Assembly (NCBI GenBank): GCA_965223545.1
Contig: OZ245006.1
Span: 6,080,001-6,144,000, forward strand
Origin: Planctomycetota bacterium
Lineage (GTDB): Bacteria; Planctomycetota; UBA1135; UBA2386
Reading direction: 5' to 3'
DNA: 64,000 nucleotides
The notes below the pieces were generated by a model that saw only the letters and a list, made by a program, of their open reading frames with translations, had not been told where the DNA came from and did not search any database. Position 1 is the stretch's first letter; each line of letters opens with the position of its first letter. The position numbers and the translations under genes were made by a program. Positions 15,259 to 49,188 of the stretch are shown piece by piece.

Positions 15259-16620
15259 TCAGCCCTGCGGCGGCGGATACGACTGGATCGGCCGCCGCTG
15301 GCAGATCGCCGCGATCCGGCGCTCGGCGTCTTGCTGCACGGCCGGGTCGATGCGGTACTCGCGGTCGGAGTCTTGCGTCGTGCCCGCCAGGATGTCGTGG
15401 ATGATGTCCACGCACTCCACCATGTCCGCCGGCTCCATGTGGCGGATCGCCAAGCCGTTGGTGCCGAGGCGAATGCCCGAGGTCACCGACGGTGGGCGGG
15501 TGTCGTAGGGGATGCGGTTCTTGTTGACGACGATGCCGCAGTCTTCGATCGCCTTCTCCGCGTTCACCCCGGTGATGCCCTTCTGCGCGACGTCGACGAC
15601 GACGATGTGGTTGTCGGTGCCACCGGTGATGACGCGGTAGCCCTTGTCCTGAAACGCCGTGGCCAGGGCGCGGGCCAGATCGACGACGCGCTGGGCCACG
15701 CCGCGAAACTCGGGGCTCTGCACGTAGGCGAGACCGCGCGCCTTGGACGCCACCGCGGACTGGTTGGGCGCGCCCTGGAAGAACGGGAACACCTTCTTGT
15801 CGATCATCTGCCCCAACGTCCACTTGCCGTCCGGCGTCTTCTTGTCGTAGTCGACGCCGCACATGACGAGACCGCCGCGGCCGCCGTACAGCTGTTTGTG
15901 CGTGCAGGTCGTGGTGAAGTGCGCGTGGTCGATCGGGTTGGGGTGCAGGCCGGCGGCGACCAGGCCGGCGATGTGGGTGATGTCGGCGAGCACGAAGGCG
16001 CCGACCTCGTCGGCGATCGCGCGAAACCGCGCCCAGTCGATCTGCCGCGAGTACGCCGTCGTGCCGCAGATGATGAGCTTCGGTTTGTGCTCGCGCGCCA
16101 GCGCCTCCATCCGCTCGTAGTCGATGCGCTCATCGGGGGTGAGGCCGTAGCCGATCGCGCGGAACACCTGTCCCGAGATCGACGCCTTGGAGCCGTGCGT
16201 GAGGTGCCCGCCAGAGTCCAGGTCCATGCCCAGCAGGGTGTCGCCGGGGCTCATGGTGCCGAACATCACCACCTCGTTGGCGGACGTCGCCGACATCACT
16301 TGCACGTTGGCGTAGCGCGCGCCGAATGCGCTCTTGGCGCGCTCGATCGCCAAGGACTCGATCTTGTCGATGTACTTGCAGCCGGCGTGGAAGCGCGCGC
16401 CGGGGTAGCCCTCGGCGGTGACGTTCATCGTCGGCATCGCCTCACAGATCAGGGCCGATGGGTCGGCGATGCTGGACGACGCCACCATGGTGAGCACGTT
16501 GGCTTGCCGGCGGTACTCGTCGTCGAGCAGGCGAAAGAGCTCGGGGTCGGCCTGCCGCAGCTTGTCGACGCCGGTGGCGACGAAGCGCGTCAAATTGTCC
16601 GCGGCGGTGGTGGGGTCCAT
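15259..16620 (-). CDS. Divergent serine hydroxymethyltransferase-family PLP enzyme in the NRPS operon
   Basis: EGYPGARFHAGC, GGHLTHG, TTCTHKQLYGGRGG (PLP Lys), GGTDNH and SGIRLGT motifs. Several residues differ from housekeeping GlyA. Confidence 0.88.
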   Translation of the reverse strand: MDPTTAADNLTRFVATGVDKLRQADPELFRLLDDEYRRQANVLTMVASSSIADPSALICEAMPTMNVTAEGYPGARFHAGCKYIDKIESLAIERAKSAFGARYANVQVMSATSANEVVMFGTMSPGDTLLGMDLDSGGHLTHGSKASISGQVFRAIGYGLTPDERIDYERMEALAREHKPKLIICGTTAYSRQIDWARFRAIADEVGAFVLADITHIAGLVAAGLHPNPIDHAHFTTTCTHKQLYGGRGGLVMCGVDYDKKTPDGKWTLGQMIDKKVFPFFQGAPNQSAVASKARGLAYVQSPEFRGVAQRVVDLARALATAFQDKGYRVITGGTDNHIVVVDVAQKGITGVNAEKAIEDCGIVVNKNRIPYDTRPPSVTSGIRLGTNGLAIRHMEPADMVECVDIIHDILAGTTQDSDREYRIDPAVQQDAERRIAAICQRRPIQSYPPPQG

Positions 16621-16650: not shown

Positions 16651-19600
16651 TCAGGCGTCGTTGCCGATGCGGCTCTGCACCTCGTCGTCGGACAGCGCTT
16701 CGATCGCGGCGAGCATCTCGCAGATCTCACCGGCGTCGACTCCGGCCTCGCGGCCGCGGTGCTCGATGAGCGTCGACAGCGCCGCCACCGTGCGCGATTC
16801 GAAGATGTCCGGCAAGGCGATTTCGAACGGGAAGATCTCGCCCAGCCGCGCTTGGATCTGCACTGCCAGCAGCGAGTGGCCGCCGAGGTCCAAGAACGCG
16901 TCGTGGATGCCGACGCGGTCGAGGCCGAGCACGTCGGTCCACACACCGGCCACGACTTCCTGCACCGGGGTCTCCGGCGCCGCGTACGGCGACTCCATGT
17001 CGGGGCGCGAGGTGTCGGGTTCCGGCAGTGCCTTGCGGTCGACCTTGCCGTTGGGCGACAGCGGCAGCTGCTCCATCGGCACGTAAATCGCGGGCACCAT
17101 GTAATCGGGCAGCTGGCTGCCGAGCGCCCGCCGCAGGGTCGGGCCGAGCTGGCGCGCCAGCTTGCCCATCATCGGGTTGTTGGCGAAGTCGGCGGCGGTG
17201 GCTGCCGGGTCGACGGCGAGGCCGGCGCCGTCGGCGAACAGCACGTCGGCCGGCGCATCGCCGGCGCGGTGGAACGCGACGTCGAAGCCGCCCTGATCCA
17301 GCTCCGCCGCAAAGCGCACGTCGCACCGGTAGCCGAGCTCGTCGGCGAGCTGCCACATGGCCTCGGGGTCCAGCGCGGGCGGGGTGTTCGCGTCGATGGC
17401 GGCGCGCAGCGCGCCGGCGGTCGGTGGGCAGTCGGCGGCGGCCAGTGCTTGCACGATGCGCACATCGCGCTCGACCCGGGCGTTGCGCACGCCGCGCAGG
17501 ATCAGTAGCTCGGGCGCGTCGCCTTCGAGCTCGGCGCGCAGCGCCGCGACGTCGGTGCGCTCGTCCCAACGGCGCTCGACCGGTGTCGCGGCCGAGGTCT
17601 TCGCGACGTCGCCGATGTGCAGAGTCACGTCGTAGCGGAACTTGTTGAGCTCGTTGTGGAAGTCGCCGCGCTTGAGCTGGATCTGCACGAACCCGATCTC
17701 CGGCAGCTGCGTCTGCAGCCACGCGAAGAAGCGTGGGTCGATGACCAGCTCCTCTTCCTGTCGGATCAGCCGCTGGACCCGGGCGCGCAGCGTGTCGCAG
17801 GTGGCGTCGTCCGCCGCCTGGAACAGCTGCACCGAGCTCTGGTACGCGGTCAGCATCGGCAGACCGCGGACGTCGCCGACGAAGATCACGCCGCCCGGGC
17901 GCACTGCCTTGGCCGAGCCGCGCAGCACGTCCATCAGGTAGTCCATGCTCGGGAAGTCGAGCACGATCGAGTTGAGCACCACCGCGTCGAGACTGTCTTC
18001 GGCGATGCCCTCGAAGTTGTCGGCCCAGCGCCGGTCGAGGTGGACCTGCTCGAGCGCGCGCTGCTGCGCGTGGCGGTGGACGTAGTCGAGGGCCACCGTC
18101 GAGAAGTCGGTGCCCATGTAGTGCGAGCAGTGCGGCGCGATGCGGAACAGCAACAGCCCCATGCCGCAGCCGATCTCCAGCACGCGGTCGGGCGCGCGCG
18201 CCCGGATCCGTTCGACCGTCTGCTCGACCCACACCCGCATCTCGGCTTCCGGGATCGGCTGGTTGGTGTAGGACGAGTCCCAGCTGACGATGTTGAACGT
18301 CGGGTCGTCGCCGCCGTCGACGTTGGCGCTGTAGGCGTGGTCGTACACCGCCTGCCACTGCTCGACCTGCTCGTTGCTGAGCTCGTCGGCATCGCCCTCG
18401 GGACCGCGCCAGTCGGGGTCTTGCACGACGTAGGCGACCAGCCGCTTCTCGCCGGCGGCGTCGGTCTTGGTCACGACCACACCTTCGCGCACCGCCTCGT
18501 GGTCGCGCAGCCGCGCCTCGATCTCACCGAGCTCGATGCGGTAACCGCGGATCTTGACCTGGTTGTCCATCCGGCCGAGCAGCTCGAGGTTGCCGTCGGG
18601 CATCCACCGCGCCAGGTCGCCGGTGCGGTACATCCGCGCGCCCTCGGCCTTGGCGAACGGGTCGGTCAGAAAGCGCTCGGCGGTGAGCTCGGGCCGCTGG
18701 AAGTAGCCCTCGCCGACGCCGATCCCGCCGAGGAACAGTTCGCCCGGCACGCCCACCGGCAGCGGCTGCAAGTGGACGGGGTCGAGCACGTAGGCCAGCT
18801 GGTTGGCCATCGGCTCGCCGTAGGGAATGCTGTGCCACGCCGGGTCGACCGCACCGATCTCGTAGATGGTCGAGTCCATCGAGCACTCGGTGGCTCCGCC
18901 CATGCTGATCACCCGGCACTCGGGCAGCAGGGCGCGCAGCCGGTCCGGTAGGGTCACCGGAATCCAGTCGCCGCCGAGCAGCACCAACCGCAGGCTCTGC
19001 GGCACTTGGTCGGTGTGCACCTCGAGGTGGTCGACCAGCATCTTCAGCATCGCCGGTGCGGTGTGCCAGACCGTGACGCCGCGGGCGCTCATCAGCGCGG
19101 CCCAGTGCGGTGGATCCTGCAGCTTGTCGGGGTCCGGCAGCGCGATGGTGGCGCCGGCCGCCAGGATGCCGAACACGTCGTAGGCGCACATGTCGAACGA
19201 CAGCGACGCCAGGGCGATCAGCGCGTCGCCGGGTCCGACGTGGAAGCGGCGGTTGAAGTCGAGGAAGTTGTTGACCCGGCCGCGGTGGTTGAGGACCACG
19301 CCCTTGGGCGCACCGGTCGAGCCCGAGGTGTAGATGACGTACGCCAGATTGGTGCTGCGCACGCCGGCGTCGGGCGGCGTCGCCGGTTGGTCGGCCGCGG
19401 TGGCCGGGTCGTCGACGAACACCAGGCGGGCGTCGGTCGCCGGCATGGTGTCGGCGAGGTGGCGCTGGGTCAGTACCACGCCGACCTTGGAGTCGTCGAC
19501 CATGTAGGTCAGCCGCTCGCGGGGGTAGGCCGGATCCATCGGCAGGTAGGCGCCGCCGGCCTTGGCGATCGCCAGCAGGCCGACGACCATCTCCAACGAC

Positions 19601-20469
19601 CGCTCCACCGAGATGCCGACCATTTGGTCGAGCTGCACGCCGAGCCCGCGCAGGTGGTGGGCGAGTCGGTTCGCGCGGGCATCCAGCTCGGCGTAGCTCA
19701 GCGTCGCGTCGCGAAACGCGCAGGCGATCGCGTCGGGTTGGGCCGCGACCTGCTGCTCGAACAGACCGTGCAGGGTGGCGTCGCGCGGAAAGTCGATCGC
19801 CTTGTCGTTCCAGCCGTACAGGATCTGCTGGCGCTCGGTGTCGGTGAGCAGGGGGAGCAGGCCGACGGCGGTGTCGGGGGACGCGGCGACGCCGCCGAGC
19901 AGGGTGGCGAGGTGGCCGGCGGTGCGGGCGATGGTGTCGTCGTCGAACCGCTCCGCGTCGTAGTCGAACGCGCAGCCGTGCGCGTCGAACCCGAGGACGA
20001 GCTCGGTCGTCGCCGCCGCGCCCGAGCCATCGGTGTCGGCGCGACACGCGACCTGGAACAAGCACGCGTCGGGCTCGCCGATCGCGCGGGCGATCTGCGC
20101 GAGGGGCAGCGTGTGCTCACGCGCCGCCGCCATTTGCGCGCGCACGTGCGCGACGATCGCGGCGAACGTCGCGTTGCCATCGATCGACAGCCGCAACGGC
20201 ATCGGCCCCGTCGGCTGCAGCACGCCGATCACCAAGTCGGTCTGTCGGGTGACGCGGTGCAGCAGCACGGCGCAGGCGGCGACCTGCGCGGCGGGCTCGT
20301 CGCCGACCACGCCGCGGGCCGAGGCGTCGAGCGGGTGGTGGGCGTGCGCGGCGCGGGGGGGGTGGTCGGCGGCGCGCGTGCGCAGAGTTGGCAGCTCGAG
20401 CGCCGGTGGGCGTTCGCTGAGCGCGTCGCGCCAGTAGGACGGGGCGTCGGGAGCGTTGGCCTGTGACAT
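16651..20469 (-). CDS. NRPS: truncated C remnant - A (interrupted by a methyltransferase) - T
   Basis: YTSGSTGAPKG, YRTGD and QVKIRGYRIELGEIE; inserted MT (VLEIGCGMG, VVLNS); NGKVDR; T domain LGGHSL. Start at ATG 20469. Confidence 0.93.
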   Translation of the reverse strand: MSQANAPDAPSYWRDALSERPPALELPTLRTRAADHPPRAAHAHHPLDASARGVVGDEPAAQVAACAVLLHRVTRQTDLVIGVLQPTGPMPLRLSIDGNATFAAIVAHVRAQMAAAREHTLPLAQIARAIGEPDACLFQVACRADTDGSGAAATTELVLGFDAHGCAFDYDAERFDDDTIARTAGHLATLLGGVAASPDTAVGLLPLLTDTERQQILYGWNDKAIDFPRDATLHGLFEQQVAAQPDAIACAFRDATLSYAELDARANRLAHHLRGLGVQLDQMVGISVERSLEMVVGLLAIAKAGGAYLPMDPAYPRERLTYMVDDSKVGVVLTQRHLADTMPATDARLVFVDDPATAADQPATPPDAGVRSTNLAYVIYTSGSTGAPKGVVLNHRGRVNNFLDFNRRFHVGPGDALIALASLSFDMCAYDVFGILAAGATIALPDPDKLQDPPHWAALMSARGVTVWHTAPAMLKMLVDHLEVHTDQVPQSLRLVLLGGDWIPVTLPDRLRALLPECRVISMGGATECSMDSTIYEIGAVDPAWHSIPYGEPMANQLAYVLDPVHLQPLPVGVPGELFLGGIGVGEGYFQRPELTAERFLTDPFAKAEGARMYRTGDLARWMPDGNLELLGRMDNQVKIRGYRIELGEIEARLRDHEAVREGVVVTKTDAAGEKRLVAYVVQDPDWRGPEGDADELSNEQVEQWQAVYDHAYSANVDGGDDPTFNIVSWDSSYTNQPIPEAEMRVWVEQTVERIRARAPDRVLEIGCGMGLLLFRIAPHCSHYMGTDFSTVALDYVHRHAQQRALEQVHLDRRWADNFEGIAEDSLDAVVLNSIVLDFPSMDYLMDVLRGSAKAVRPGGVIFVGDVRGLPMLTAYQSSVQLFQAADDATCDTLRARVQRLIRQEEELVIDPRFFAWLQTQLPEIGFVQIQLKRGDFHNELNKFRYDVTLHIGDVAKTSAATPVERRWDERTDVAALRAELEGDAPELLILRGVRNARVERDVRIVQALAAADCPPTAGALRAAIDANTPPALDPEAMWQLADELGYRCDVRFAAELDQGGFDVAFHRAGDAPADVLFADGAGLAVDPAATAADFANNPMMGKLARQLGPTLRRALGSQLPDYMVPAIYVPMEQLPLSPNGKVDRKALPEPDTSRPDMESPYAAPETPVQEVVAGVWTDVLGLDRVGIHDAFLDLGGHSLLAVQIQARLGEIFPFEIALPDIFESRTVAALSTLIEHRGREAGVDAGEICEMLAAIEALSDDEVQSRIGNDA

Positions 20470-20833: not shown

Positions 20834-21874
20834 ATGCACGACACCTCACCGAAGAAGCCGCTCCCCAGGACGACCCGCCGGCGCGTATCCGGCGGCGGAG
20901 CTGCCGGGGTCCGTCTCGGCCCGCTGGGCCAGGCCGCCATCCCGCAGGTCGTGCGGCCCGCGGTCGACGGCACCGATCTGCTGGCCTGGGCCACCGCCAA
21001 CCTCGACACCCTCGACGGTTGGCTGCTGCAGCACCGCGCGCTGTTGTTCCGCGGGTTCGGCGTGCGCGCGGTCGAGCAGTTCGAGCAGTTCGTGCGCGCG
21101 ACATCCGACGGCAACCTGCTCGAATACCGCGACCGCACCACGCCGCGCACCACCGAGGGCAATCGCATCTACACCGCCACGGTGCACCCGGCCGACCAGC
21201 GCATCAACCCGCACAACGAAGGCACGTATTGGACGCGGTGGCCGCAGAAGCTGTACTTCTGCTGCCTCACCGCGCCGCGCAGCGGCGGCCAGACGCCGAT
21301 CTGCGACGTGCGCCGGGTCTATGAGCGCATCCCCGCCGAGGTGCGCGCGCCGTTCGAGGCCAAGGGCTTCATGCTGGTGCGCAACTACAACGACGGCTTC
21401 GGCCTGCCGTGGCAGGAGGTGTTCCAGACCGAGGACAAGGCGGAGGTCGAGAGCTTCTGCCGCGCCAACGACATCGAGTTCGAGTGGAAGTCCGGTGGCC
21501 GGCTGCGCACGACCCAGGTGCGGCCGTGCGTGCGCACGCATCCGCGCACGAATGAGAAGGTATGGTTCAACCACGCGGTGTTCTACCACTCCACCACGCT
21601 GGACCCGGCGACGCGGGAGGCCCTGGTCGGCGAGTTCGGCGAGAGCGGCCTGCCCTACAGCACTTGCTACGGCGACGGCTCGCCGATTCCGGCCGATGCC
21701 GCCGCCGCGGTGCGCGCCGCCTACGCCGCTGAGACGACGATGTTCTCGTGGCAGCCGGGCGACGTGATGCTGCTCGACAACATGAGCGTCGCGCACGCGC
21801 GCGAGCCCTACGAGGGCGAGCGCATGGTGCTGGTGTCGATGACCGACGCGATGGGCGACGGGGACGCGGCATGA
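20834..21874 (+). CDS. TauD/TfdA-family Fe(II)/2-oxoglutarate dioxygenase, SyrP-like
   Basis: LLFRGF, HNE metal motif, WFNH and WQPGDVMLLDNMSVAHAR. Start ATG 20834; stop overlaps the NRPS start. Confidence 0.9.
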   Translation: MHDTSPKKPLPRTTRRRVSGGGAAGVRLGPLGQAAIPQVVRPAVDGTDLLAWATANLDTLDGWLLQHRALLFRGFGVRAVEQFEQFVRATSDGNLLEYRDRTTPRTTEGNRIYTATVHPADQRINPHNEGTYWTRWPQKLYFCCLTAPRSGGQTPICDVRRVYERIPAEVRAPFEAKGFMLVRNYNDGFGLPWQEVFQTEDKAEVESFCRANDIEFEWKSGGRLRTTQVRPCVRTHPRTNEKVWFNHAVFYHSTTLDPATREALVGEFGESGLPYSTCYGDGSPIPADAAAAVRAAYAAETTMFSWQPGDVMLLDNMSVAHAREPYEGERMVLVSMTDAMGDGDAA

Positions 21875-24800
21875 CCGAGGTGACGCAGGCCAACGCGGTC
21901 GAGGGCTTTCGGCTATCGCCGCAGCAGCGCGATCTCTGGCGCCAGCAGATGGCGGCGGGTGCGGCCGCGTTCGCGGCGAGTGCTGCGGTCGAGATCGAAG
22001 GCGCGATCGACGCGGAGCGGCTGGCGCGCGCGCTGGAGGTGGTGGTCGGCCGTTACGAGATCTTGCGCACCGGCTTCCACAGCGTGGCGGGGGCGAGCCT
22101 GCCGGTGCAGGTGATCGGCGAGGCGGGTGGTGTCTCGGTCGCGGCGGAGCCGGTGACGGCGCCGTGGGCGGACGCAGCGGCTCTGCGGAAACCGCCGTTG
22201 TTGCATATCGCCTTGCAGCCCGCCGGCGATCGCAGCCGCCTGACGCTCACCGTTCCCGCCCTGTGTGCCGACGCGATCGGCTTGCACAACACCGTGGCCG
22301 CCTTGGCGGCGGTCTACTCCGGTGCCGAGGACGGCGACGAGCCGCTGCAGTACGCGGATCTCGCCGAATGGCAGAACGAGCTGCTGGAGGACGCCGACGC
22401 GCGCGCGTTCTCGCTGCGGGTGGCCGACGCCCGCGCGACCCTACCCGGCGTTCGTGCCGGGGCGGCCACCGCGGCGCAGGACGTGCTCCGGCAGGCGTTG
22501 CCGGCGGAGCTCGGCCAGGCGCTCGCCGCTGTGGCCGAACGGCGGCGGACGACGGTCGAGGTGGTCTGTCTGGCGGGCTTCGCCGCGCTGGTGCACCGTT
22601 TGACCGGGCGCGAGCAAGTCTTGCTCGGCGCGCGCGCCGATGGCCGCGCCTACGAGGGCCTCGATCGCGCCATCGGCCTGTTCGCGCGCGACGTCCCGGT
22701 CTCGGTGTTCGTCGATGGCGAGCGACCGTTCGCCGCGGTGGTCGACGATGCCGCCGCGGCGTGGAGCTCGGCGGGCGAGCGCGTCGAGCAGTTCTCGTGG
22801 GAGCGCGTGGAGGATGCCACCGAGGCGCCGTACTTCGCGCTGGCGTTCGCCGCCGAGGATCGCTCGCAGGTGTTCGCGGTTGGCGATGCCCGGTGGACCG
22901 TTGTCGGGACACGCGCGCACACGCAGCACGCCGACGTCCGCGTGCTGGTCGTGCGCGATGTCGATGGCTGGGCGATGGAGCTGCACGGCGACGCGGCGCG
23001 GGTCGATCGTGCCGCGGCGGCGCGCTGGCTCGACCAGCTGATCGCGCTGCTGGCGCACGCCGCGGACGAGGTCGACACCCCGGTCGGCGCGCTTCGCCTG
23101 CTCGATGCAAACGCCGCCGCCGACATGCTGCGCCGCTTCAACGCGGCCACAGCGCCCGTCGATACCGACCGCACCATCCACGCCACGATCGAGGCCGCGG
23201 TCGACCGTGACCCGAACGCGGTGGCCGTGCAGGCCGTCGACGGCGCCCTGACCTATGGCGAGCTCGAGCGCCGGGCCAACCAGGTCGCGCACCTGCTGCG
23301 CGACCTCGGCGTCGGAGTGGACGACCGCGTGGGCCTGTGCCTGGAGCGCTCGGCGTCGATGCTGGTCGGGCTGCTCGGCATCCTCAAGGCGGGCGCGGGC
23401 TACGTGCCGCTCGATCCGGGTTATCCGCGCGACCGGCTGGCGTTCTTGCTGGCCGACAGCGGCGCCCGCGCAGTGGTCACCGACGCCGCGGGTGCCATGG
23501 CGCTGCCGCCGCACGAAGTCGCGACGTTGTGCTTGGATGGGGATGCCGAGCGGCTGGCCGCGGCCAGTGCCGATCGGCCGCAGCCGGTGGCGGCCGCCGA
23601 TCATCTGGCGTACGTGATCTACACCTCGGGCTCGACCGGCACGCCGAAGGGCGTCGAGATCACGCATCGCACGCTGCTGCACTCGACCCTGGCGCGCGAG
23701 GCGGTCTACCCCGAGGCGCCCGGGCGCTATCTGTTGGTGTCGAGCTACGCCTTCGACAGCTCGGTCGCCGGTTTGTTCTGGACCGCGGTCAGCGGCGGGG
23801 CGCTGGTGCTGCCGGGCCAGGGGCTGGAGCGCGACCTGCGCGCGCTGCGCCAGCTGATCGATACCCACGCGGTGACCCACACCCTGATGCTGCCGTCGCT
23901 GTACACGACCTTGCTGCGGGAGACCGGCGGTGAGGGCATGCGGTCGTTGCGCTGCGTGATCGTCGCCGGTGAGGCGTGCTCGCGCGACACCGTCGATCTG
24001 CACCACGAGCTGCTGCCGGATGCGGGCTTGTGGAACGAGTACGGGCCCACCGAGGGCACGGTGTGGGCGACCGTCCACCATTGCGTGGCGGCCGACGAGG
24101 CCGCCCGCGTGCCGATCGGCGTGCCGATCCGCAACGTCCAGGCCTACGTGCTCGACGCGGCCGGTGGGCCGCTGCCGGTGGGTGTGCCGGGCGAGCTCTA
24201 CATCGGCGGTGACGGTCTGGCGCGCGGCTACCTCGGGCGGCCGGAGCTGACCGCCGAGCGGTTCGTGCGCAACCACCTGGCGGAGACGCCGGGCGATCGG
24301 CTGTACCGAACCGGTGACCTGGTTTGCCGCCGTGACGACGGCGCGCTCGACTTCCTCGGCCGCGTCGACCACCAGGTCAAGGTGCGTGGCTATCGCATCG
24401 AGCTCGAAGAGGTCGAGGCCGCCCTGGTCGAGCTCGACGGCATCGCCGAGGCCGCAGTGGCGGCACCGACGGCGGACGACGGCGCCGCGCGCCTGGTCGG
24501 CTACGTCGTGCCGGCCGCCGGCAGCACGCCGTCCACCGCGGCGATCGCCGATGCGCTGCGGGCGGCGCTGCCCGACTACATGGTGCCCGCGCAGTGGGTC
24601 GTTCTCGACGCGCTGCCGCTCAACCCCAACGGCAAGGTCGATCGCGCCGCCTTGCCCGAGCCCGCCGACGGTGCTGTCGACCGGCCCACTTACGCCGCGC
24701 CGCAGGGGGCGGTGGAGACGGTGCTCGCCGAGCTCTGGGCGGACGTCTTGCAAGTGGAGTCGGTCGGGCGCGAGGACAATTTCTTCCAGCTCGGCGGCCA

Positions 24801-25032
24801 CTCGCTGTTGGTGACCCAGCTGGTGTTCCGCGTGCGCGATACGCTGGGCGTGGAGATGCCGCTGCGCTTGGCGTTCGAGGCGCCCACGCTGGCGGCGCTC
24901 GGCGAAGCGCTGCTGGCCGATCCCGACCGCCGCGCCCGTGCAGAGAAGGCGGCCGCCCTGATCGAGCAGCTGTCGGCCATGTCGGAAGACGAGGTCGATG
25001 CCATGCTCGAGAGCGAGGATCGGCCGGACTGA
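21871..25032 (+). CDS. NRPS: degenerate C (interface-like) - A - T
   Basis: N-terminal EGFRLSPQQ; C-domain motif degraded to PALCADA; A core motifs YTSGSTGTPKG, EYGPTE, YRTGD; T domain LGGHSL. Confidence 0.93.
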   Translation: MTEVTQANAVEGFRLSPQQRDLWRQQMAAGAAAFAASAAVEIEGAIDAERLARALEVVVGRYEILRTGFHSVAGASLPVQVIGEAGGVSVAAEPVTAPWADAAALRKPPLLHIALQPAGDRSRLTLTVPALCADAIGLHNTVAALAAVYSGAEDGDEPLQYADLAEWQNELLEDADARAFSLRVADARATLPGVRAGAATAAQDVLRQALPAELGQALAAVAERRRTTVEVVCLAGFAALVHRLTGREQVLLGARADGRAYEGLDRAIGLFARDVPVSVFVDGERPFAAVVDDAAAAWSSAGERVEQFSWERVEDATEAPYFALAFAAEDRSQVFAVGDARWTVVGTRAHTQHADVRVLVVRDVDGWAMELHGDAARVDRAAAARWLDQLIALLAHAADEVDTPVGALRLLDANAAADMLRRFNAATAPVDTDRTIHATIEAAVDRDPNAVAVQAVDGALTYGELERRANQVAHLLRDLGVGVDDRVGLCLERSASMLVGLLGILKAGAGYVPLDPGYPRDRLAFLLADSGARAVVTDAAGAMALPPHEVATLCLDGDAERLAAASADRPQPVAAADHLAYVIYTSGSTGTPKGVEITHRTLLHSTLAREAVYPEAPGRYLLVSSYAFDSSVAGLFWTAVSGGALVLPGQGLERDLRALRQLIDTHAVTHTLMLPSLYTTLLRETGGEGMRSLRCVIVAGEACSRDTVDLHHELLPDAGLWNEYGPTEGTVWATVHHCVAADEAARVPIGVPIRNVQAYVLDAAGGPLPVGVPGELYIGGDGLARGYLGRPELTAERFVRNHLAETPGDRLYRTGDLVCRRDDGALDFLGRVDHQVKVRGYRIELEEVEAALVELDGIAEAAVAAPTADDGAARLVGYVVPAAGSTPSTAAIADALRAALPDYMVPAQWVVLDALPLNPNGKVDRAALPEPADGAVDRPTYAAPQGAVETVLAELWADVLQVESVGREDNFFQLGGHSLLVTQLVFRVRDTLGVEMPLRLAFEAPTLAALGEALLADPDRRARAEKAAALIEQLSAMSEDEVDAMLESEDRPD

Positions 25033-25052: not shown

Positions 25053-25856
25053 ATGAATCCGTTCTTCTTCGGCAGCTCCGAGCGGCAGCTGTTCGGCGTT
25101 CACCACCCACCAGAACGCGGCGGTGTGCGCGACAGCGCGGTGCTGATTTGCCCGCCGTTCGGCGCCGAGCACATCGCGGCCCACCGCGCGCTGCAGCAGC
25201 TCGCCGCTCGGCTGGCGCGGGGTGGCTTCCACGTGCTGCGCTTCGACTACTCGTGCACCGGCGATTCCGCGGGTGACGGCGAGGAGGCGCGCTTCGACGA
25301 TTGGGTCGCCGACGTCGGCACCGCGGCGCAAGAGCTGCGGGACACGAGCGGTGCGTCCAAGCTCAGCGTCGTCGGTCTGCGGCTGGGGGCGACCAGCGCG
25401 GCGGTGGCAGCGGCTGCCGGCGGGCTGGGTCCGCTGCACGCCTGCGTGCTGTGGGAGCCCATCGTCGATGGGGACGCCTATCTGCAGTGGTTGGCCGAGC
25501 GGCAGGCCGACTGGGTGCGGCGCACCTACCCCAAGCCCAAGCCGCAGACGCTCCAATGGCGGGTGCCCGAAGTGCTCGGCTTTCCACTGCCGGTGGCGCT
25601 GCAGGACGCGCTGCGCGCGCAGCGCCTGACCGATTTGGCCGCCTCGCCCGCACCGCGCGTGTTGTTGGTGACCAACGAGGGCACGGCGGCGGCCGAGCCG
25701 CTGCGCGCCGCGCTCGATGGCTCGGGCGCGGCGGTCGAATTGCGCGATGTTGCCGCCGAGCCGTGCTGGGTCGGCCACGCCGGTGGCACGATCGCGCTGG
25801 TGCCGGTCGAGGTCCAGCAGTCGATCGCTGCCTGGCTCGGGGAGGCGCACGGGTGA
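25053..25856 (+). CDS. Alpha/beta hydrolase-fold protein with a GLRLG elbow (no nucleophile)
   Basis: LICPPFG, LRFDYSCTGDSAG, VGLRLGA and LWEPIVDG motifs; resembles the exosortase-associated hydrolase-2 type. Confidence 0.82.
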   Translation: MNPFFFGSSERQLFGVHHPPERGGVRDSAVLICPPFGAEHIAAHRALQQLAARLARGGFHVLRFDYSCTGDSAGDGEEARFDDWVADVGTAAQELRDTSGASKLSVVGLRLGATSAAVAAAAGGLGPLHACVLWEPIVDGDAYLQWLAERQADWVRRTYPKPKPQTLQWRVPEVLGFPLPVALQDALRAQRLTDLAASPAPRVLLVTNEGTAAAEPLRAALDGSGAAVELRDVAAEPCWVGHAGGTIALVPVEVQQSIAAWLGEAHG

Positions 25857-26755
25857 GGGAGGCCGTCGTTCGCTTCGGTGCGCAGAAGTCGCTGGTCGGT
25901 GTGGTCACCGATCCGGAAAACGGCACCGCCACCGGCGGGCTCGGTTGCGTGTTCTTGAACGCTGGCTTCACGCCGCGCATCGGGCCGCAGCGGCTGTCGG
26001 TTCTGCTCGCCCGTCGGCTGGCGGCGATCGGCATTCCCGCTCTGCGGTTCGACTTCTCCGGCATCGGCGACAGTCCGAGTCGGCAGGACAACATGTCGTT
26101 TGCCGACAGCACGGTGTCGGAGACCCAAGAAGCGATGAGTCTGCTCGCCGCCACGCGCGGGGTGCAGCACTTCGTCTTGATCGGTGTCTGTTGGGGCGCC
26201 GACAACGCGCTGCGCGTCAGTCAGGTCGACGAACGCGTCGTCGGGGTCGGCGCAGTCGACTTCTACGCGCTGTTCTCGATGCGGTATCTGGTGCGTACCC
26301 ACCGCGGCCGGTTGGCGGATCCGCGCAGCTGGTGGCGGTTGTTGCGCGGCGCCAGTCCGGCGATCGGCCGCGCGCTCGGTGGCCTGCTCGAACTGGCCAA
26401 GCAGCGGCGCGCGGCGCGTGGCGACACCTCGGGGGACCTGCTGCCCGTCAAAGCGCCGGCGACCGTCGTCGCCGAGCTGCGCGCGGGCATCGAACGCGGG
26501 GTCGAGATGTGCTTCGTGTATGCGCGCGGGGCTCCGAGCTACGATCAATACGTGATGAACTTCGCCGCGCCGATGCGCGATCTGGAGGGGCCGGGCCGAC
26601 TGCGCATCGAGCTGTTCGATGACGCGGACCACGTGTTCACTCTGCTGAGCAACCAAGGCGCGTTGATGGACGCGCTCGTGGAATGGACCCGGCAGCTGGC
26701 GGCGCGCCGCGCCGCCGCGGGCGGCCCGACGGTGTCGGAGTCGTTGACTCACTGA
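25853..26755 (+). CDS. Alpha/beta hydrolase with a Cys nucleophile (GVCWG); putative aminoacyl transferase
   Basis: FLNAG, LRFDFSGIGDS, IGVCWGAD and DADHVFT motifs; GTG overlaps the previous stop. Confidence 0.82.
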   Translation: MREAVVRFGAQKSLVGVVTDPENGTATGGLGCVFLNAGFTPRIGPQRLSVLLARRLAAIGIPALRFDFSGIGDSPSRQDNMSFADSTVSETQEAMSLLAATRGVQHFVLIGVCWGADNALRVSQVDERVVGVGAVDFYALFSMRYLVRTHRGRLADPRSWWRLLRGASPAIGRALGGLLELAKQRRAARGDTSGDLLPVKAPATVVAELRAGIERGVEMCFVYARGAPSYDQYVMNFAAPMRDLEGPGRLRIELFDDADHVFTLLSNQGALMDALVEWTRQLAARRAAAGGPTVSESLTH

Positions 26756-26766
26756 GGCGGAGGGCA

Positions 26767-29325
26767 GTGCGCTTGAGCTCGTTGATCGAGTCGCGGTCGA
26801 GTGACACGGCGCCGCTTTCGTTCGCGCAGCGGCGGATCTGGTTCCTGTCGCAGATCGAGGATGCGGCCCCGGCCTACAACATGCCCGTGCAGTTGCGCGT
26901 GCGGGGCTCGTTGGACACAGCAGCGCTCGACACTGCGCTGGCCGGCGTCGTGCGGCGCCACCGGGTTTTGCGCAGCCGGATCGTGCGCGATGGCGAGCAG
27001 CTCCTGCAGGTCACCCAGCCGCCGCTGTCGAGCGTGCTGCAGGTCGTCGACCTGCGCGGTGCGCGGGATCCGGAGCAGGAGGTGCGCGCGATCGCCCGGG
27101 CCGAGGCCGGTCAGGTGTTCGATCTCGAGGCGGGTTCGTCGCATCGCTTCGTGCTGGCGCGCGTCGCCGACGAAGACTGGGTGTTGCTGCTGACGTTGTC
27201 GCACCTGGTCGCCGACGGCTGGTCGGTCGGCGTCCTCTTGCACGAGGTCTCGGTGGGCTATGCCGCGGCGCGGCGGGGGGTGGCCGCCGAGCTACCGGAG
27301 CTGGCGCTCCAGTACGGCGAGTTCGCCGCCTGGCAGCGCGACCACCTCGGTCGCGTGACGTTGCAAGAGGAGTTGGACTACTGGCGGCGACAGCTGGCGG
27401 ATCTGCCGGTGCTGCGTTTGCCGAGCGACCACCCCCGCCCCGAGCGGCAGACCTTCGTCGGCCGACAGCTGCGTTTTCGGATCGATGCGGAGCTGGCGGG
27501 GGCAGTGCGACGGCTGGCGGGCGAGTGCCGGGCGACGTTCGGCATGACGCTGCTGGCCGCCTTCCAAGCGTTGCTGTCGCGGTGGAGTGGCCAGCTGGAC
27601 TTCGCGGTGGGAACGCCGGTGGCCAACCGCCAGCCGCCGGAGACCGAGCCGCTGATCGGGCTGTTCTTGAACAACCTCGTGCTGCGCGCCGACCTGCGGG
27701 GCGAGCCGTCGTTTGCGGAAGTCGTGCGGCGTACCGCGGCGACCATGGTGGTTGCCATGGAGCACCAGCAGCTGCCGTTCGAAGAGCTCGTCGCGGCGCT
27801 GCGGCCCCCGCGCGACTTGGGCCGGAGTCCGCTGTTCGACGTGATGTTCAACTTCCTGAGCGAACCGCACGTCGACGCTCAGCTGGCGGGGGTCGCGGTG
27901 GAGGAGTTCGGCTTCGAGGGATTCACTGCCAAGTTGGACCTGACCCTGGGGCTGCGCCCGCGCGAGGACGGCATCGAGGGGGTGGTCGAGTACAACAGCG
28001 ACCTGTTCGACGAGGCCACCGTCGAGGCCATGCGCGACGAGTACTTGGCTGTGCTGCGCGCGGTGACCGCCGACCCGGAGATTGCGTTGGCACGGCTCCC
28101 GGTGCGCGGCGTGGCGGCAGCCTTGCCGACTCCCGCGCCGGCCGAGGTGGCGGCTCCGGCTCCTCCGCGCGGCCCGATCCAGCGCTTCTTGGCCAAGCTC
28201 TGGTGCGAGGTGTTGGAGCTCGACGAGGTGTCGGTGCACGACAACTTCTTCGACCTCGGCGGCCACTCGCTGCTGGCGATGCGCGTCGCGGTCCGCATCG
28301 AGGAGCGGTTGGGCGTTCGCGTGCAGCCGATGGAGCTCCTGGTCAACACCCTCGAGCAAATGGCGCGCCGGTGTTCGGTGCCCGCATCCGCCCCGGCGTC
28401 TGCGCAACCGACCGTGGCTGTCGAGGCGGCTCCGGTCGCCGTCGCCGCGGCCACCGGGGCGGCGATGGTCGATGGCGAGATCCGCGAGACGGCGGTGTCG
28501 TTCGGTCCCGCTGGCAGCGTCGTCGGGGTGCTCGCCGAGCCGGCCGACGAGGAGCTGCGCCGGGGGGTCGGAGTCACCCTGCTCAACGCCGGCGCCACGC
28601 CGAGGCTCGGGCCGCAGCGATTGTCGGTCAAGATCGCGCGCCGCTTGGCGCGGCTGGGCTATTGCTCGCTGCGCTTCGACTACAGCGGCATCGGCGACAG
28701 CCCGAGCCAGCGCGACGGTCTCTCCTACCAGGAGCGCGGCGTGCAGGAAGTGCGCCAGGCGTTCGACTTCCTCGCCGAGGCGCGCGGCGTGCCCGCGTTC
28801 GTGCCGATGGGGATGTGTTGGGGGGCCGACAACTCGATGCGCACGGCGCTCGCCGACCCGCGCGTCGCGGGCGCGCTGCTGTTCGATTTCTACGCCCGCC
28901 CCTCAGCGCGCTACTTGACGCGCCTCTACGCCCGAAGGCTGCTTTCACCGCACAGCTGGCGCAACTTCGTCGGCGGCAAGAGCTCGGTGCTGCGCTACCT
29001 GGTCGAAGCCGTGCAGCACCGCACCCGAGGCGACCGCGTCGACGTCGAGGACCCGTTCGCCGTCCCCGAGCCGACCGAGGCCGACTTCGCCACTCTGGTC
29101 GAGCGCGGCGTGCGGCTGTGTCTCGTCTACGCCAACGGCGCTCCATCGTACGACCACTACCGCTACCGGTTCCGCCCGTGGCTGGAACGCCATCCACAAT
29201 CGATCCAAGTGCGGCTGCTACCCAACGCCGACCACCTGGTCACCCTGCTCGCCAACCAGGACGCCTTCGTCGAGATCATCGCCACCTGGATGCAAGACCA
29301 AGCCGCCGCCGACCCACGCTTCTGA
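26767..29325 (+). CDS. A-less NRPS module: C - T - Cys-type alpha/beta hydrolase
   Basis: PLSFAQRRIWFL, SHLVADGWS, T domain FFDLGGHSL, then a GMCWGAD...NADHLVT hydrolase. RBS GGAGG before GTG 26767. Confidence 0.9.
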   Translation: MRLSSLIESRSSDTAPLSFAQRRIWFLSQIEDAAPAYNMPVQLRVRGSLDTAALDTALAGVVRRHRVLRSRIVRDGEQLLQVTQPPLSSVLQVVDLRGARDPEQEVRAIARAEAGQVFDLEAGSSHRFVLARVADEDWVLLLTLSHLVADGWSVGVLLHEVSVGYAAARRGVAAELPELALQYGEFAAWQRDHLGRVTLQEELDYWRRQLADLPVLRLPSDHPRPERQTFVGRQLRFRIDAELAGAVRRLAGECRATFGMTLLAAFQALLSRWSGQLDFAVGTPVANRQPPETEPLIGLFLNNLVLRADLRGEPSFAEVVRRTAATMVVAMEHQQLPFEELVAALRPPRDLGRSPLFDVMFNFLSEPHVDAQLAGVAVEEFGFEGFTAKLDLTLGLRPREDGIEGVVEYNSDLFDEATVEAMRDEYLAVLRAVTADPEIALARLPVRGVAAALPTPAPAEVAAPAPPRGPIQRFLAKLWCEVLELDEVSVHDNFFDLGGHSLLAMRVAVRIEERLGVRVQPMELLVNTLEQMARRCSVPASAPASAQPTVAVEAAPVAVAAATGAAMVDGEIRETAVSFGPAGSVVGVLAEPADEELRRGVGVTLLNAGATPRLGPQRLSVKIARRLARLGYCSLRFDYSGIGDSPSQRDGLSYQERGVQEVRQAFDFLAEARGVPAFVPMGMCWGADNSMRTALADPRVAGALLFDFYARPSARYLTRLYARRLLSPHSWRNFVGGKSSVLRYLVEAVQHRTRGDRVDVEDPFAVPEPTEADFATLVERGVRLCLVYANGAPSYDHYRYRFRPWLERHPQSIQVRLLPNADHLVTLLANQDAFVEIIATWMQDQAAADPRF

Positions 29326-29326
29326 A

Positions 29327-29400
29327 GTACGGAGTCCGGCTCGATTTTCTCGCTTGGCGGCGGTAGCCGCCAAGCGAGAAAATCGAGCCGGACTCCGTAC
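29327..29400. repeat. Perfect 35-bp inverted repeat with a 4-nt loop between convergent genes
   Basis: 29327-29361 is the exact reverse complement of 29366-29400; loop GGTA. Confidence 0.92.
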
Positions 29401-29403
29401 GTG

Positions 29404-32352
29404 TCACGGCCATGTTCGGATCGCGTCGACTGCGACGAACGCGCCCGGGGTCGGGTCCCGGTCGTAGACGCGGAGCTCGGCGATGCGTCCGCGCCATGGG
29501 CGGATGTCGCAGATCTCGGTGTGCATGCCGCCGCCGCCCAGGCCGCTCGCGCGCCAGACGGTTTCGCCGCCGCAGATCAGCTCGATTCCGCAGCGCTTGC
29601 GGTCCGCGTTGCCGGCGATCCGGACGCTCAGCACCGACCCGGCGAGCCGCAGCGGGGGTGAGCGCAGGGTGCCGACGCGCGGCCGCCCTTTGGGGTCGGC
29701 ACTGCTGAGCACGAACTCGCCTTGGTGGCCTCGAATTCCGGCGGGGTCGTTGGCGTCGACGCGCACGCGTCGAACGGCGCCATTGCCGTGCCAGGCGGAC
29801 AGAGCGGTGTCTTCGAAGGTGAGCGCCGCGGCGGCTCCGCGGGTGACGCTCGCCTCGACCGCCATCGGGCGCGGTTGGGCTGCGGGCATTGCCCGCAGCC
29901 AAGCAGCGCAGCGTGTCGCCTTGAGCTCCGCGCCGAGCTGCTCGTAGAACGCCAGCAACGCCGCGCCGGTTTGTCGGTCGGGCTCGGCGAAGAAGCGGCG
30001 CAACAAGCGGATCTCGAGTGTCCAGTCGCGGGCGGCGACCGCGGACCGCAGCCGATCGAGGTCGGTGTGCAGCGCCGCCAGGAGACTGTTGTCGGCGTGC
30101 GTCGCCCACACCGCCGCCAAGTAGGCTTGGTCCAGCTCGCCGCCGGCTTCGAGCGTGTGGGCGGCTCGTCGGAGCGCGTCGGCCAGGCGAGGATCGCGTG
30201 TGACGGCGGAGCCGCCGCGCCGCACGAGCTGTCGAACATCGTTCTGCATCGAACGCAGCGTGGGGTGCCGGGCCTCCGGCAGGGCGCTCGGGTAGGCGAT
30301 CGCGGCACTGCGCGGTGCCCTCGACGGCGCGGCGCGTGTCGTGATCCAGTGCCAGGAGTCGCCGTCCGTGCAGAGGCCCAGCTCGAGATCGACGCTGGCA
30401 AAGTCAGCCGATCGGGGCAGCCCGGCTCGGTCCGCTTCCAGCTCGAGATCGACCCGGTACGGCTCGCCCGGCAGCCAGTGTCGCGCGAACCACAGCGCCT
30501 TCGCCGCGCTCTCGATGCCTTGCCGTTCCGGCCGCCGGCTCAGCTTCGCCTGCAGCAAGATGGGGCCGCTCTGCCCGGTCCGCGTCGTCAGCCAGACGGT
30601 GACCCCGAGCGCATGCGGCGCGCCTCCCGTGCGCACCGTGCTGCCCACGACGTCGACCGAGTCGGTGAGCGCGATGCGCTGCAGGCGGTCGATGTCCGGA
30701 AAGTAGTCGACGAACGCCCCTCGGTGGATGCCGCGAGTCCGCGGCGCGCCGACGTCGTGGCGATGCGCGTAGCCGAGGTGCCACTCGGGCGACGCGCGCA
30801 GGCCGCGCCAGGTCTGCCCGTAGACGTTCAAGAACAGCGGCCAAGCGGGCTGCTCGTGGAACACGTGCCGATAGCGGTGGCGGTCGCGAACGCCGGAGTC
30901 CAGTCGGTGCGAGGGGGCGTAGTGGGCGAGCACCGGATCGCGGAGCCCGAGCAGGTCCAGCCCCCGAAGCTGGGCGGAAGAGGCCAATGACGGCGCGCCG
31001 AAGTCGGTCGTCGCCAGCCTGGCCACCGGAACTCCGAGGGAGTCCCGCAGCCGCTCGGTGGCTTCGACCTGGGCGAGCACGGGGCAGTAGTGGCACGGGG
31101 TCCGGTGGTCTTGACGGGCGGCGCTGCGATCGAGCACGACGTGGTCGAGGATCACCAACGCGCTCAACAGCACCGACGCGACCGCCGCGCGTGGTCGACC
31201 TGGGGTCCAGCGTTCGGTCGTGGCGGCGAGGGCCCCGACCCCCAGGGCTGCCAGCACGCCGATCGCGACCGCCGCAGGTGTGAACAACCGCCCTCCCATG
31301 GCCCGGTCACCGCCGGCCCAGACCGGAAACGCGAGGCCGACGGCGAGCACGGCCGCAAGGGCGCAACGCGGGTACCATCCGGCCGGTGGCTCCGCGCCTC
31401 CGAACCGATCGGCGCGCCACCGCCACAGCGGGACCGACCCGAGCCCGATCGCGGCGAGCACCACCATCCCAACATCGAGGTCCTGGCGCCAGAACCGCAG
31501 CAGGTAGGTGAGGCCGTCGTCGAGAGTCGTCGATTGCTTGGCCCAGTAGGTGTTGGTCACCCACGTTCCGAAATAGAGGCCGCGCGCGAGATGCAGCAGG
31601 CCCACGCCGAGGGCGAACACGCCGGCGTCGCGGAGCAGTCGTCCGCGGTCGCGAAGCGTAGCGCCGCGGGAGTCGAGCAGTCGGAGCCCGCCGAGCGCCA
31701 GTCCATAGGCGACGCCCTCCGGTCGGGTCGCCGCGACGGCGACTGCGAGCGTCGCGGCGAGGGGGAATCGGCGGGGGCGCGCCCGCTCGCGGAGGTCGGC
31801 GAGCAGCATCGCACCGAGCAGGCAGGCGAGCAGGCCGTTCTCCAGCCCGGCGGGCATCCACCGCGTGAACGCGGTCAGCGAACACGCGATCGCGGCCGGC
31901 ACCAGGTCGTGGGCGCGCACGTCGCGGCAGGCACGCCCCTCGGTCACCTGGACCAGCCGCCCCGCGAGCACCAACGCCACCCCGCCCAGGCCGACGCCGA
32001 GGGTCTTGGCGGCCAGAATCGGCTCGACGCCGACCGCGTATGCCAAAGCCAGCAGTAGCACCCAGAGCGGATTGGAGAACCCCTCGACCCGCGGGCCGCC
32101 GACGTTGGCGACCAGGCCGTGGCCGTCCACCATGTGCACAGCGTAGGCCGCGCTGATCGCGGCCTCGTCGATCGTGTAGTGCCACGAGTGGTGCAATGCC
32201 GCGCCGTACAACACGGCAGTGCCCAGCGCGACGAACACCAGACGTGCCCCGTCCGTGATCGTCGCGGGGGAGCCGGGTTCCGCCGTTCTCGCCGCGCCGG
32301 GGCGAGCAGTCAGTGTCTTGGGCAAAGGGATCACGACGCTCCGGCGCGACAT
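29404..32352 (-). CDS. Large integral membrane protein; GT-C/PMT-like N-terminus plus extracytoplasmic domains
   Basis: IDEAAIS...VEGFSNPLW, GLEN, TRPEG and NTYWAK motifs with about 10 hydrophobic segments. Start approximate. Confidence 0.68.
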   Translation of the reverse strand: MSRRSVVIPLPKTLTARPGAARTAEPGSPATITDGARLVFVALGTAVLYGAALHHSWHYTIDEAAISAAYAVHMVDGHGLVANVGGPRVEGFSNPLWVLLLALAYAVGVEPILAAKTLGVGLGGVALVLAGRLVQVTEGRACRDVRAHDLVPAAIACSLTAFTRWMPAGLENGLLACLLGAMLLADLRERARPRRFPLAATLAVAVAATRPEGVAYGLALGGLRLLDSRGATLRDRGRLLRDAGVFALGVGLLHLARGLYFGTWVTNTYWAKQSTTLDDGLTYLLRFWRQDLDVGMVVLAAIGLGSVPLWRWRADRFGGAEPPAGWYPRCALAAVLAVGLAFPVWAGGDRAMGGRLFTPAAVAIGVLAALGVGALAATTERWTPGRPRAAVASVLLSALVILDHVVLDRSAARQDHRTPCHYCPVLAQVEATERLRDSLGVPVARLATTDFGAPSLASSAQLRGLDLLGLRDPVLAHYAPSHRLDSGVRDRHRYRHVFHEQPAWPLFLNVYGQTWRGLRASPEWHLGYAHRHDVGAPRTRGIHRGAFVDYFPDIDRLQRIALTDSVDVVGSTVRTGGAPHALGVTVWLTTRTGQSGPILLQAKLSRRPERQGIESAAKALWFARHWLPGEPYRVDLELEADRAGLPRSADFASVDLELGLCTDGDSWHWITTRAAPSRAPRSAAIAYPSALPEARHPTLRSMQNDVRQLVRRGGSAVTRDPRLADALRRAAHTLEAGGELDQAYLAAVWATHADNSLLAALHTDLDRLRSAVAARDWTLEIRLLRRFFAEPDRQTGAALLAFYEQLGAELKATRCAAWLRAMPAAQPRPMAVEASVTRGAAAALTFEDTALSAWHGNGAVRRVRVDANDPAGIRGHQGEFVLSSADPKGRPRVGTLRSPPLRLAGSVLSVRIAGNADRKRCGIELICGGETVWRASGLGGGGMHTEICDIRPWRGRIAELRVYDRDPTPGAFVAVDAIRTWP

Positions 32353-32560
32353 CGGCCTGCGGAGGCCCGACCAACACGTCATTCGCGCGTTGGGGAGGAC
32401 GTCGCGCCTGGCCTGTCGTTACGCGGCCGGCGCGAATCTCGTAGAGGCGGGAGCATGGTGAGTCGCGGCGAGCGCGTCGGCGGTCGGCTCGGCCCGTTCT
32501 TGACGGGCTTGCAACGAGGCCGGGTTCCGGTTGTGCTGCGCCGTCCCGTTGGCAACCACG

Positions 32561-49181: not shown

Positions 49182-49188
49182 GTGGTGA
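47641..49188 (+). CDS. ltrA: Group II intron reverse transcriptase/maturase
   Basis: GAPGVDG, IPKPSGGQRGLGIP, HGFRP, DLEKFFD, GTPQGGPLSP, RYADD, FLGF and LRGWIGYF (domain X). No HNH domain. Confidence 0.95.
   Translation: MRKPKPRQLQFAFAESPQGDGVAGRADESATKSTSVPTTDCSHRSESAPPPADGYCHLLELVAEQGNLRSALAHVVSKKGAPGVDGQTVSEVKRHAKHLLPKLRDALLMETYAPGDIRRVWIPKPSGGQRGLGIPTVIDRWVQQAVRQILEPIYDPTFHDSSHGFRPRRGAHTAIAEAAGYVKQGRRYTVDIDLEKFFDRVHHQRLLDRLAQKVKDRRVLRIIRLMLKANVVLPDGTRVVTEEGTPQGGPLSPLLSNIVLDELDWELERRGLRFVRYADDCNIYVGSERSGHRVMASIRRFIERRVRLKVNEAKSSVDLAHRRHFLGFRVGATRKGWLTVQLSRRTLDRIDARIRELTPRSWGGRMSWCIERLNRYLRGWIGYFQLITKAAWRTLRNLDGHIRRRLRAIIIRQKKRPRYLFRDLVARGCSWQSAARTAFGRRGTWWQSNSGAIKRAYPNQWFAERLVSLSKLWDERRYDWRPPLGDTVLKSRMCDPQVRFCESCGGATPRGYSAW

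Follow-up and report, generated by a model that had tools for sequence, protein, structure and literature searches.

Background

The exosortase A-associated hydrolases 1 and 2 (TIGR03100, hydr1_PEP, and TIGR03101, hydr2_PEP) are encoded as a tandem pair, and the Burkholderia exopolysaccharide cluster Bcam1330-41 includes a member of these families (PMC3584217). In the literature that we searched, which took in few subscription journals, we found no member of either family that has been characterised functionally, and the one paper retrieved on them contains no functional test. SyrC and CmaE have a GxCxG motif, and in GrgF, of the gregatin pathway, the nucleophile is a Cys. GrgF acts in trans to join two polyketide chains (PMC8902786), and LgnA, the legonmycin type II thioesterase, moves Thr between carriers (PMC8748450). 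The benzobactin cassettes include a free-standing condensation enzyme and a carrier that has no adenylation (A) domain of its own and borrows one (PMC10098953).

Here we discuss three hydrolase-fold units in a 64,000-nucleotide stretch of DNA from a Planctomycetota bacterium (assembly GCA_965223545.1, contig OZ245006.1, positions 6,080,001 to 6,144,000), referred to as the window; the source genome, G000, has 8.1 Mb in 2 contigs. The units stand at the end of a nonribosomal peptide synthetase (NRPS) operon and comprise a GLRLG protein (H2), a free GVCWG protein (H1) and a GMCWG paralog of H1 (H1') fused after the last thiolation (T) or carrier domain. A first-pass annotation had described this trio as replacing the thioesterase, and had read it as a possible shuttle of SyrC type that picks up an aminoacyl group from one carrier and loads a module without an A domain. 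The trio is a real feature, and the domain scan found no thioesterase domain in the cluster. Our interpretation of the function differs: H2 and H1 probably form a heterodimer that would dock on a distinct carrier subtype, which we name T*, and off-load the chain through an acyl-S-Cys intermediate in place of a thioesterase, also in trans.

Family, fold and residues of the trio

H2 has its best family match to TIGR03101 (E 4e-30, 105.1 bits, curated cut-off of 202.75 not reached), and H1 and H1' to TIGR03100 (E 2e-22 and 4e-21, 80 and 75.5 bits, cut-off of 168.45 not reached). With E values of 4e-21 or better these matches are not due to chance, and the link to the two families made in the first-pass annotation stands as homology, at scores below the curated cut-offs. 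All of the 83 H1 rows matched TIGR03100, and H1 and H2 show both full-length homology to these families and their tandem order, hydrolase 2 before hydrolase 1. None of H1, H1' and H2 matched the Pfam Thioesterase family (PF00975), their family being Hydrolase_4-like. The thioesterase-like position after the last carrier is held by H1 or H1'. By sequence the trio belongs to known but uncharacterised families and not to the thioesterase family. No exosortase was found among the 40 window proteins scanned, to which the search was confined. ESM Atlas matches were limited to unnamed Hydrolase_4 clusters and two hydrolase-2 clusters, structure and profile searches found no close homolog with a solved structure, and close homologs are labelled Planctomycetota.

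Over 284 aligned columns H1 and H1' share 44% identity, and the motifs NAG.TPR.GPQRLSV, RFD.SGIGDSPS and ADH, earlier pointed out in H1', are present in both. H2 is a distant paralog of H1 and has one true copy in the genome. The H2 stop and H1 start codons overlap as GTGA, and GGAGG, resembling a ribosome binding site, precedes the GTG start of the last gene. The Cys at the nucleophile elbow is present in 145 of 146 aligned H1 rows and the His in all 146, whereas H2 has Arg at the elbow in 86 of 86 aligned rows and no conserved late His; a catalytic His is absent from it. Ser replaces the elbow Cys in a few H1 proteins (L155, L168, L039 and others; GISSG, GLSSG).

The predicted model of H1' (mean predicted local distance difference score, pLDDT, 93; predicted template modelling score, pTM, 0.89) places the Cys at a strand-helix elbow and the His after strand 8. 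For a natural H2-H1 fusion the predicted fold has a pTM of 0.85 across a disordered linker, which is a hint that H2 and H1 may pack together but not proof. Fold neighbours include feruloyl-esterase-like proteins, DcsB (Z 23.7, root-mean-square deviation 3.4, 223 aligned) and GrgF (Z 23.4, deviation 3.6, 223 aligned), the last also being a profile match (E 1e-6).

The H2-H1 pair as a unit at assembly-line ends

We surveyed the best 80 of 276 related genome loci and the best 80 of at least 559 metagenome loci, not dereplicated. The gene immediately upstream of H1 is H2 in 75 of the 80 genome loci and in 60 of the 65 metagenome loci with room for it (15 were too short), and a T domain ends no more than 450 nt before H2 in 54/68 genome and 28/46 metagenome loci with room. 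The 357 proteins fetched, from searches that each scored 8000 candidates, include 43 H2-H1 fusions, 8 T-H2 fusions and 2 T-H1 fusions, the last two being the last gene of the window's cluster and that of a related genome, G009. The pair is widespread and closes many NRPS or polyketide synthase (PKS) clusters that lack a thioesterase, in uncultured Planctomycetota, Gemmatimonadota, Acidobacteriota and others, and 459 clusters (50% identity) match H1 at E 1e-30 or better. In five related clusters (G250, G248, G162, G121 and G164) a separate thioesterase gene comes right after H2-H1. Glycosyltransferase genes are present in 43 of 162 loci, a count made with no background control, and GT4 and flippase genes lie near many relatives' loci.

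A carrier signature associated with the pair

The carriers that stand just before H2 have a distinct helix III, in which a P.EL..xTLxQLA type replaces the usual pattern. A classifier trained on rows dereplicated at 85%, with the G009 locus left out, was positive in cross-validation for 52 of 55 pre-H2 carriers as against 12 of 79 other carriers, and these signature-bearing others are mostly terminal, facing a pair or slightly farther from one. In the window's cluster the carrier of the last gene (T3) scored +16, and those of NRPS1 and NRPS2 (T1 and T2) scored -19 and -21, with the same pattern in G009. In a later set of clusters, 44 carrier rows yielded 4 positives, each of them directly before H2-H1; one of these overlaps a training locus, and the set includes some duplicates and two mis-cut rows.

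A T* profile of 48 columns, built from 38 motif-chosen pre-H2 carriers with the close Planctomycetota loci excluded, leaves a gap in five genomes between T* carriers, at 67 bits or more, and ordinary carriers, at 54 or less. T* was found in 20 of 339 genomes of the class, all of them among the 27 that are H1-positive, and in 0/312 that are H1-negative. In G000 it is present in 3 of 16 carriers, and this genome has two orphan modules of the type TubC-C-A(Gly)-T* (C being a condensation domain) with neither a thioesterase nor any H gene near (C1:3060292-3063915 and C1:2526824), which are 53% and 46% identical to the last module of G009. G009 also has two orphan T* modules, on other contigs. These orphan modules are the informative part of the association between T* and H1. 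The signature is new in this analysis, and the carrier subtype was previously unremarked. One of the orphan modules is flanked by two 2667-aa C-A(Gly)-T-ketosynthase modules (L020-L021; G000:C1:3046554-3054554 and 3067334-3075334), which stem from a recent duplication and have GT4 and GDSL-esterase genes close by.

The gene cluster and the related cassettes

Table 1. Features of the cluster that contains the trio, with positions in the window
Feature	Position	Strand	Description
SHMT-like enzyme	15259..16620	-	Pfam SHMT (serine hydroxymethyltransferase); TAEG..RFH motif of PbzB/AsmD/FmoH type
NRPS1	16651..20469	-	truncated C, A (code DMYHLGMMD), methyltransferase, T1 (without T* signature)
TauD-family Fe/2-oxoglutarate hydroxylase	20834..21874	+	ATGA overlap with NRPS2
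NRPS2	21871..25032	+	C-like domain without His (PALCADA), A (DSALIAEVW), T2 (without T* signature)
H2	25053..25856	+	267 aa, alpha/beta-hydrolase-fold pseudo-enzyme, GLRLG, Arg110 at elbow
H1	25853..26755	+	300 aa, free putative Cys hydrolase/acyltransferase, GVCWG, Cys113, Asp136, His260
C3-T3*-H1' gene	26767..29325	+	852 aa; domains C, T, H1'
Short C-to-T linker	28105..28164	+	post-C motif joined to A-end LPxP-like motif
T3 helix II-IV with T* signature	28243..28377	+	PMELL..TLEQ instead of usual LFE.PT type; 79.8 bits
H1' fused domain	28480..29325	+	GMCWG; domain Cys113, Asp136, His252

NRPS1 and the SHMT-like gene are divergent from an operon of TauD, NRPS2, H2, H1 and the last gene (Table 1). 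The likely product of the SHMT-like enzyme is an alpha-tertiary analogue of serine, either alpha-methylserine or 2-hydroxymethylserine, the motif of the enzyme being that of the PbzB, AsmD and FmoH SHMTs (PMC10098953). A close copy of this SHMT is present in 26 of the 339 class genomes, and the NRPS1 A code also adjoins the SHMT in relatives. The top match of the SHMT is 7qcw, which we take to be PbzB; the benzobactin paper cites 7QWZ, and the identification was not used.

The TauD protein, which adjoins the His module in several relatives, is likely a His beta-hydroxylase, and the A code of NRPS2 is a His code that accepts beta-hydroxylation (PMC12283262). The C-like domain of NRPS2, in which the catalytic His is absent, falls in a clade of 14 domains of His or Asp modules (support 97). 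It may be interface-type, as expected for the module of a beta-hydroxylated residue, an interface (I) domain being C-like, without catalytic His, placed before the A domain of a beta-hydroxylated residue and with a hydroxylase nearby. Such a domain is mentioned in PMC12230676. The C domain of the last gene (C3) has its catalytic His intact (SHLVADG); as the C-like domain of NRPS2 has none, no other C in the cluster is catalytic.

The terminal A codes before H2-H1 pairs are of Gly type in 20 of the 30 that are readable, the Gly assignment of these codes being presumed, which bears on the ancestral type of the cluster. Its product would be a tripeptide of the methylated alpha-tertiary serine, beta-OH-His and Gly.

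A standalone C gene adjoins the SHMT in 10 of the 13 relatives for which the cassette was fetched (13 of 25 available). The standalone C of nine relatives form a clade (support 100) that includes one from G000 (C1:6948543-6950348), which lies 850 kb from the cluster, and the G009 copy is 63% identical. With a C of the cassette clade encoded in the genome, the first peptide bond has a likely catalyst without any shuttle. C3 was considered as a substitute for this standalone C and rejected, because in the tree it groups with lineage-specific LCL modules. G000 also has a sulfotransferase homolog at 1.54 Mb, so the pathway genes are dispersed.

The cassette as seen in relatives consists of an A-methyltransferase-T protein, the PbzB-type SHMT, the standalone C, TauD, the His module and a sulfotransferase (loci L229-L248; G250, G248, G162, G146, G147, G178, G121, G231, G249, G252, G296, G134 and G174), and this conserved gene set defines what seems to be an undescribed peptide family. 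Cassettes without H2-H1 are often beside genes for MBOAT, hexapeptide-repeat acyltransferase and sugar transferases.

With regard to the surroundings, a perfect 77-base hairpin (29326-29402) directly follows the last stop codon, and 13 places in the genome align with it over at least 60 bases. It is followed on the minus strand by the gene for a 992-aa predicted membrane protein (29404-32382) with no Pfam or NCBIfam match, the N-terminal part of which resembles GT-C glycosyltransferases; the gene was not seen beside the G009 cluster, where the contig ends. A group II intron reverse transcriptase gene (47641-49188) lies beside an IS200-like transposase fragment.

The last gene and its ortholog in G009

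The last gene has no A domain between C and T, and no docking domain either. G009 has an orthologous cluster with the same gene order, in which the last gene is TubC-C-A(Gly)-T-H1', and compared with 10 C-A-T modules of G000 itself and with the last module of G009 the short linker resembles the scar of an in-frame A deletion. This hydrolase subfamily was found in 2 of 91 family genomes, G000 and G009, and their H1' domains are sisters (support 98) within a GxCWG clade of 16 rows (99); the tree, of 59 hand-chosen rows, was like the C tree a quick one with support by SH-aLRT only. As G009 retains A(Gly), the linker is scar-like and the docking domain has gone as well, the A-less state would be a lineage-specific loss and, in this sample of two genomes, is best read as an in-frame A-domain deletion.

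The C-T junction is present with 0 differences in short-read contigs from two runs of the source sample, to which this check is confined, so it is not a long-read error. A contig from the X6 run that diverges just before T3 was considered as an A-containing allele and rejected: the divergent end of this contig matches G000:C1 near 1,655,313, with the join at a GATC, showing it to be a chimeric joint. In G009 a frameshift close to the A-domain end breaks the NRPS2 gene in two (L016:10569-13846), which may be an error or real. G000 encodes another A-less C-T-thioesterase protein (L250:9787-12366), beside a decarboxylase dependent on pyridoxal phosphate, and at L103, which has a GICWG protein, there is no fused gene downstream.

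Proposed mechanism

The following scheme builds on what was observed of the gene order, the residues, the T* signature and co-occurrence. The SHMT-like enzyme would make the alpha-tertiary serine analogue, which NRPS1 would load and methylate on T1; NRPS2 would load His on T2, where TauD would beta-hydroxylate it at the non-catalytic C-like domain; and the standalone C would join the two residues. The ancestral last module, as retained in G009, would then add Gly on T3*. The T* thioester would be attacked by the His-activated Cys113 of H1' in cis or of free H1 in trans, with H2 supplying a carrier-docking surface by means of its Arg. Finally the acyl-enzyme would be resolved by an acceptor amine or hydroxyl, to which we give slightly better than an even chance, or by water, to which we give slightly less.

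With the A and docking domains gone from the last gene of G000, T3* would be either loaded in trans or idle; direct loading by a borrowed A domain is another option. The single H2 and the free H1 likely also serve the two orphan TubC-C-A(Gly)-T* modules. The first-pass annotation had suggested an acceptor different from water, which is still plausible, given the Cys nucleophile, the separate thioesterase beside the pair in five clusters and the glycosyltransferase genes, and it is in line with the presence of Bcam1334 in an exopolysaccharide cluster (PMC3584217).

In the H1' model the positions of Cys, His and acid fit the canonical topology and would make up a candidate triad. Several observations weigh against the scheme. 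Plain esterases tie DcsB and GrgF in Z, a shared fold being no proof of function. The acid position of H1 is variable (Asp in 85 of 146 rows, Asn in 32, Glu in 23), and the Arg is not invariant among 39 distant H2-H1 fusions. There is no T in the locus at 18 of 114 loci with room, and G009 has a third, solo H1 (GLCWG; L018:12340-14127) with no H2 or NRPS nearby. The signature is missing in 2 of 8 H2-fused carriers and no T* was found in 7 of the 27 H1-positive genomes, in a scan that scored 20 candidates per genome; and because T*, H2 and H1 mostly occur in linkage, in genomes that are related to one another, their co-occurrence may partly be inheritance as a block. Lastly, no acceptor gene is evident in the window's cluster.

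The signature matters as a predictor of which T domain H2-H1 serves, which makes the function directly testable; it could connect orphan modules with a release enzyme encoded far away, and it gives a first functional lead for TIGR03100 and TIGR03101. Should the acceptor be other than water, the products predicted for H2-H1 clusters are wrong. A wider proposal, which is possible but which we put forward with considerable reserve, is that T*, the Arg pseudo-enzyme and the Cys enzyme make up a general and so far undescribed NRPS/PKS termination system, in which a trans-acting heterodimeric transacylase reads a carrier label and passes finished chains to an acceptor, for example a glycan of the cell surface, is shared by scattered assembly lines and may reload A-less T* by T*-to-T* transfer.

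Alternative readings

Two other readings concern the fate of the last gene and are compatible with off-loading by H2-H1. There is a substantial chance, somewhat short of even, that C3-T3 is a relic, idle in G000, and that the dipeptide is passed on to an intact orphan TubC-C-A(Gly)-T* module, where unloading takes place. The two separate losses, of docking and A domains, point this way, as do the already dispersed pathway and the longer end branch of the window's H1' (0.72) than of that in G009 (0.52) or of free H1 (0.35-0.40). However the 852 codons have no stop or frameshift, all the catalytic residues are kept (the His of C3, the Ser of T3 and the Cys and His of H1'), and T3 is 66% identical to that of G009, a value similar to the 64% for T2.

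In the second, free H2-H1 would move Gly from an orphan A(Gly)-T* to the A-less T3*, with H1' then releasing the tripeptide, and since acyl transfer by a Cys is reversible this could rescue the deleted A domain. Donor and acceptor carriers would both be T*, the orphan modules, with their Gly codes, are paralogs of the module that was lost, the Cys enzyme is retained in two copies, and the fused gene is an open frame with a G+C content at third codon positions of 0.90-0.96. Against this, the TubC_N docking domain is missing from the last gene as well, both Cys copies are retained in G009 with nothing to rescue, and direct borrowing of an A domain has a precedent in PbzA-T3 (PMC10098953). This is the one form in which the shuttle of the first-pass annotation could survive, and we consider it unlikely.

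In the original form of that shuttle beta-OH-His would be lifted from T2 by the free pair and loaded on A-less T3, C3 would link it with the residue on T1, and H1' would release the product; as the main function this is very improbable. It was favoured at first because the cluster has no catalytic C other than C3, by analogy with CysH, CysJ, CysB and CysK, and the anatomy does parallel that of CysH/CysJ/CysB/CysK-M3, with a standalone A-T, a 2-oxoglutarate hydroxylase, a Cys hydrolase and a module without a working A domain (PMC7966384); the residues it needs in C3, T3 and H1' are intact. However an A-less C-T module was found in 0 of the 160 related loci, many of which end early, with A-dead modules not screened. 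In G009 the trio is accompanied by an A(Gly) domain, both G000 and G009 encode a standalone C of the cassette clade, and T2 is without T*. The SyrC-type reading is thus weakly supported, and the earlier interpretation is borne out in part.

A role as editing (type II-like) thioesterases, in which the H proteins would do no more than free stalled carriers, would suit their action in trans and their resemblance to esterases by fold, but is very improbable given the separate thioesterase right after H2-H1 in five clusters, the fusion of H1' in the release position, and a signature restricted to terminal carriers, which an editor would not need.

Comparison with known systems

TIGR03100 and TIGR03101 are the best family matches and have the same tandem pair, but the trio scores about half of their cut-offs and stands in a different context, at an NRPS end, with one copy fused to a carrier and no exosortase gene identified in the window.

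SyrC, CmaE and CysB share with H1 a Cys at the elbow of an alpha/beta hydrolase, in a GxCxG motif in SyrC and CmaE as in H1, which also has the His, and the cystobactamid system (CysB) shares a hydroxylase-tailored standalone module and an A-less module (PMC7966384). They differ in being single proteins, in contrast to the Arg/Cys pair here, and the family context of H2-H1 is terminal release without A-less modules, the association with an A-less acceptor module being absent from the 160 loci, among which A-dead modules were not screened. Family, profile and structure searches with the H proteins gave no match named SyrC or CmaE.

The benzobactin, JBIR-34 and ashimide SHMT cassettes (PbzB, FmoH, AsmD) share the TAEG..R(F/Y)H motif, but the scaffold is different and no H2-H1 pair is reported in the passages of PMC10098953 consulted. 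LgnA is an example of an alpha/beta hydrolase that can transfer between T domains, and it differs in belonging to the thioesterase family PF00975, which H1 and H2 do not match. GrgF and DcsB (thioesterase DcsB in its PDB title) are among the top fold matches and are trans-acting chain-release enzymes, although they are fungal, are only 13-15% identical, act on polyketides and have no Arg partner. Support for a SyrC-like system is weak, and from its sequence context the trio likely works like a trans-acting release enzyme.

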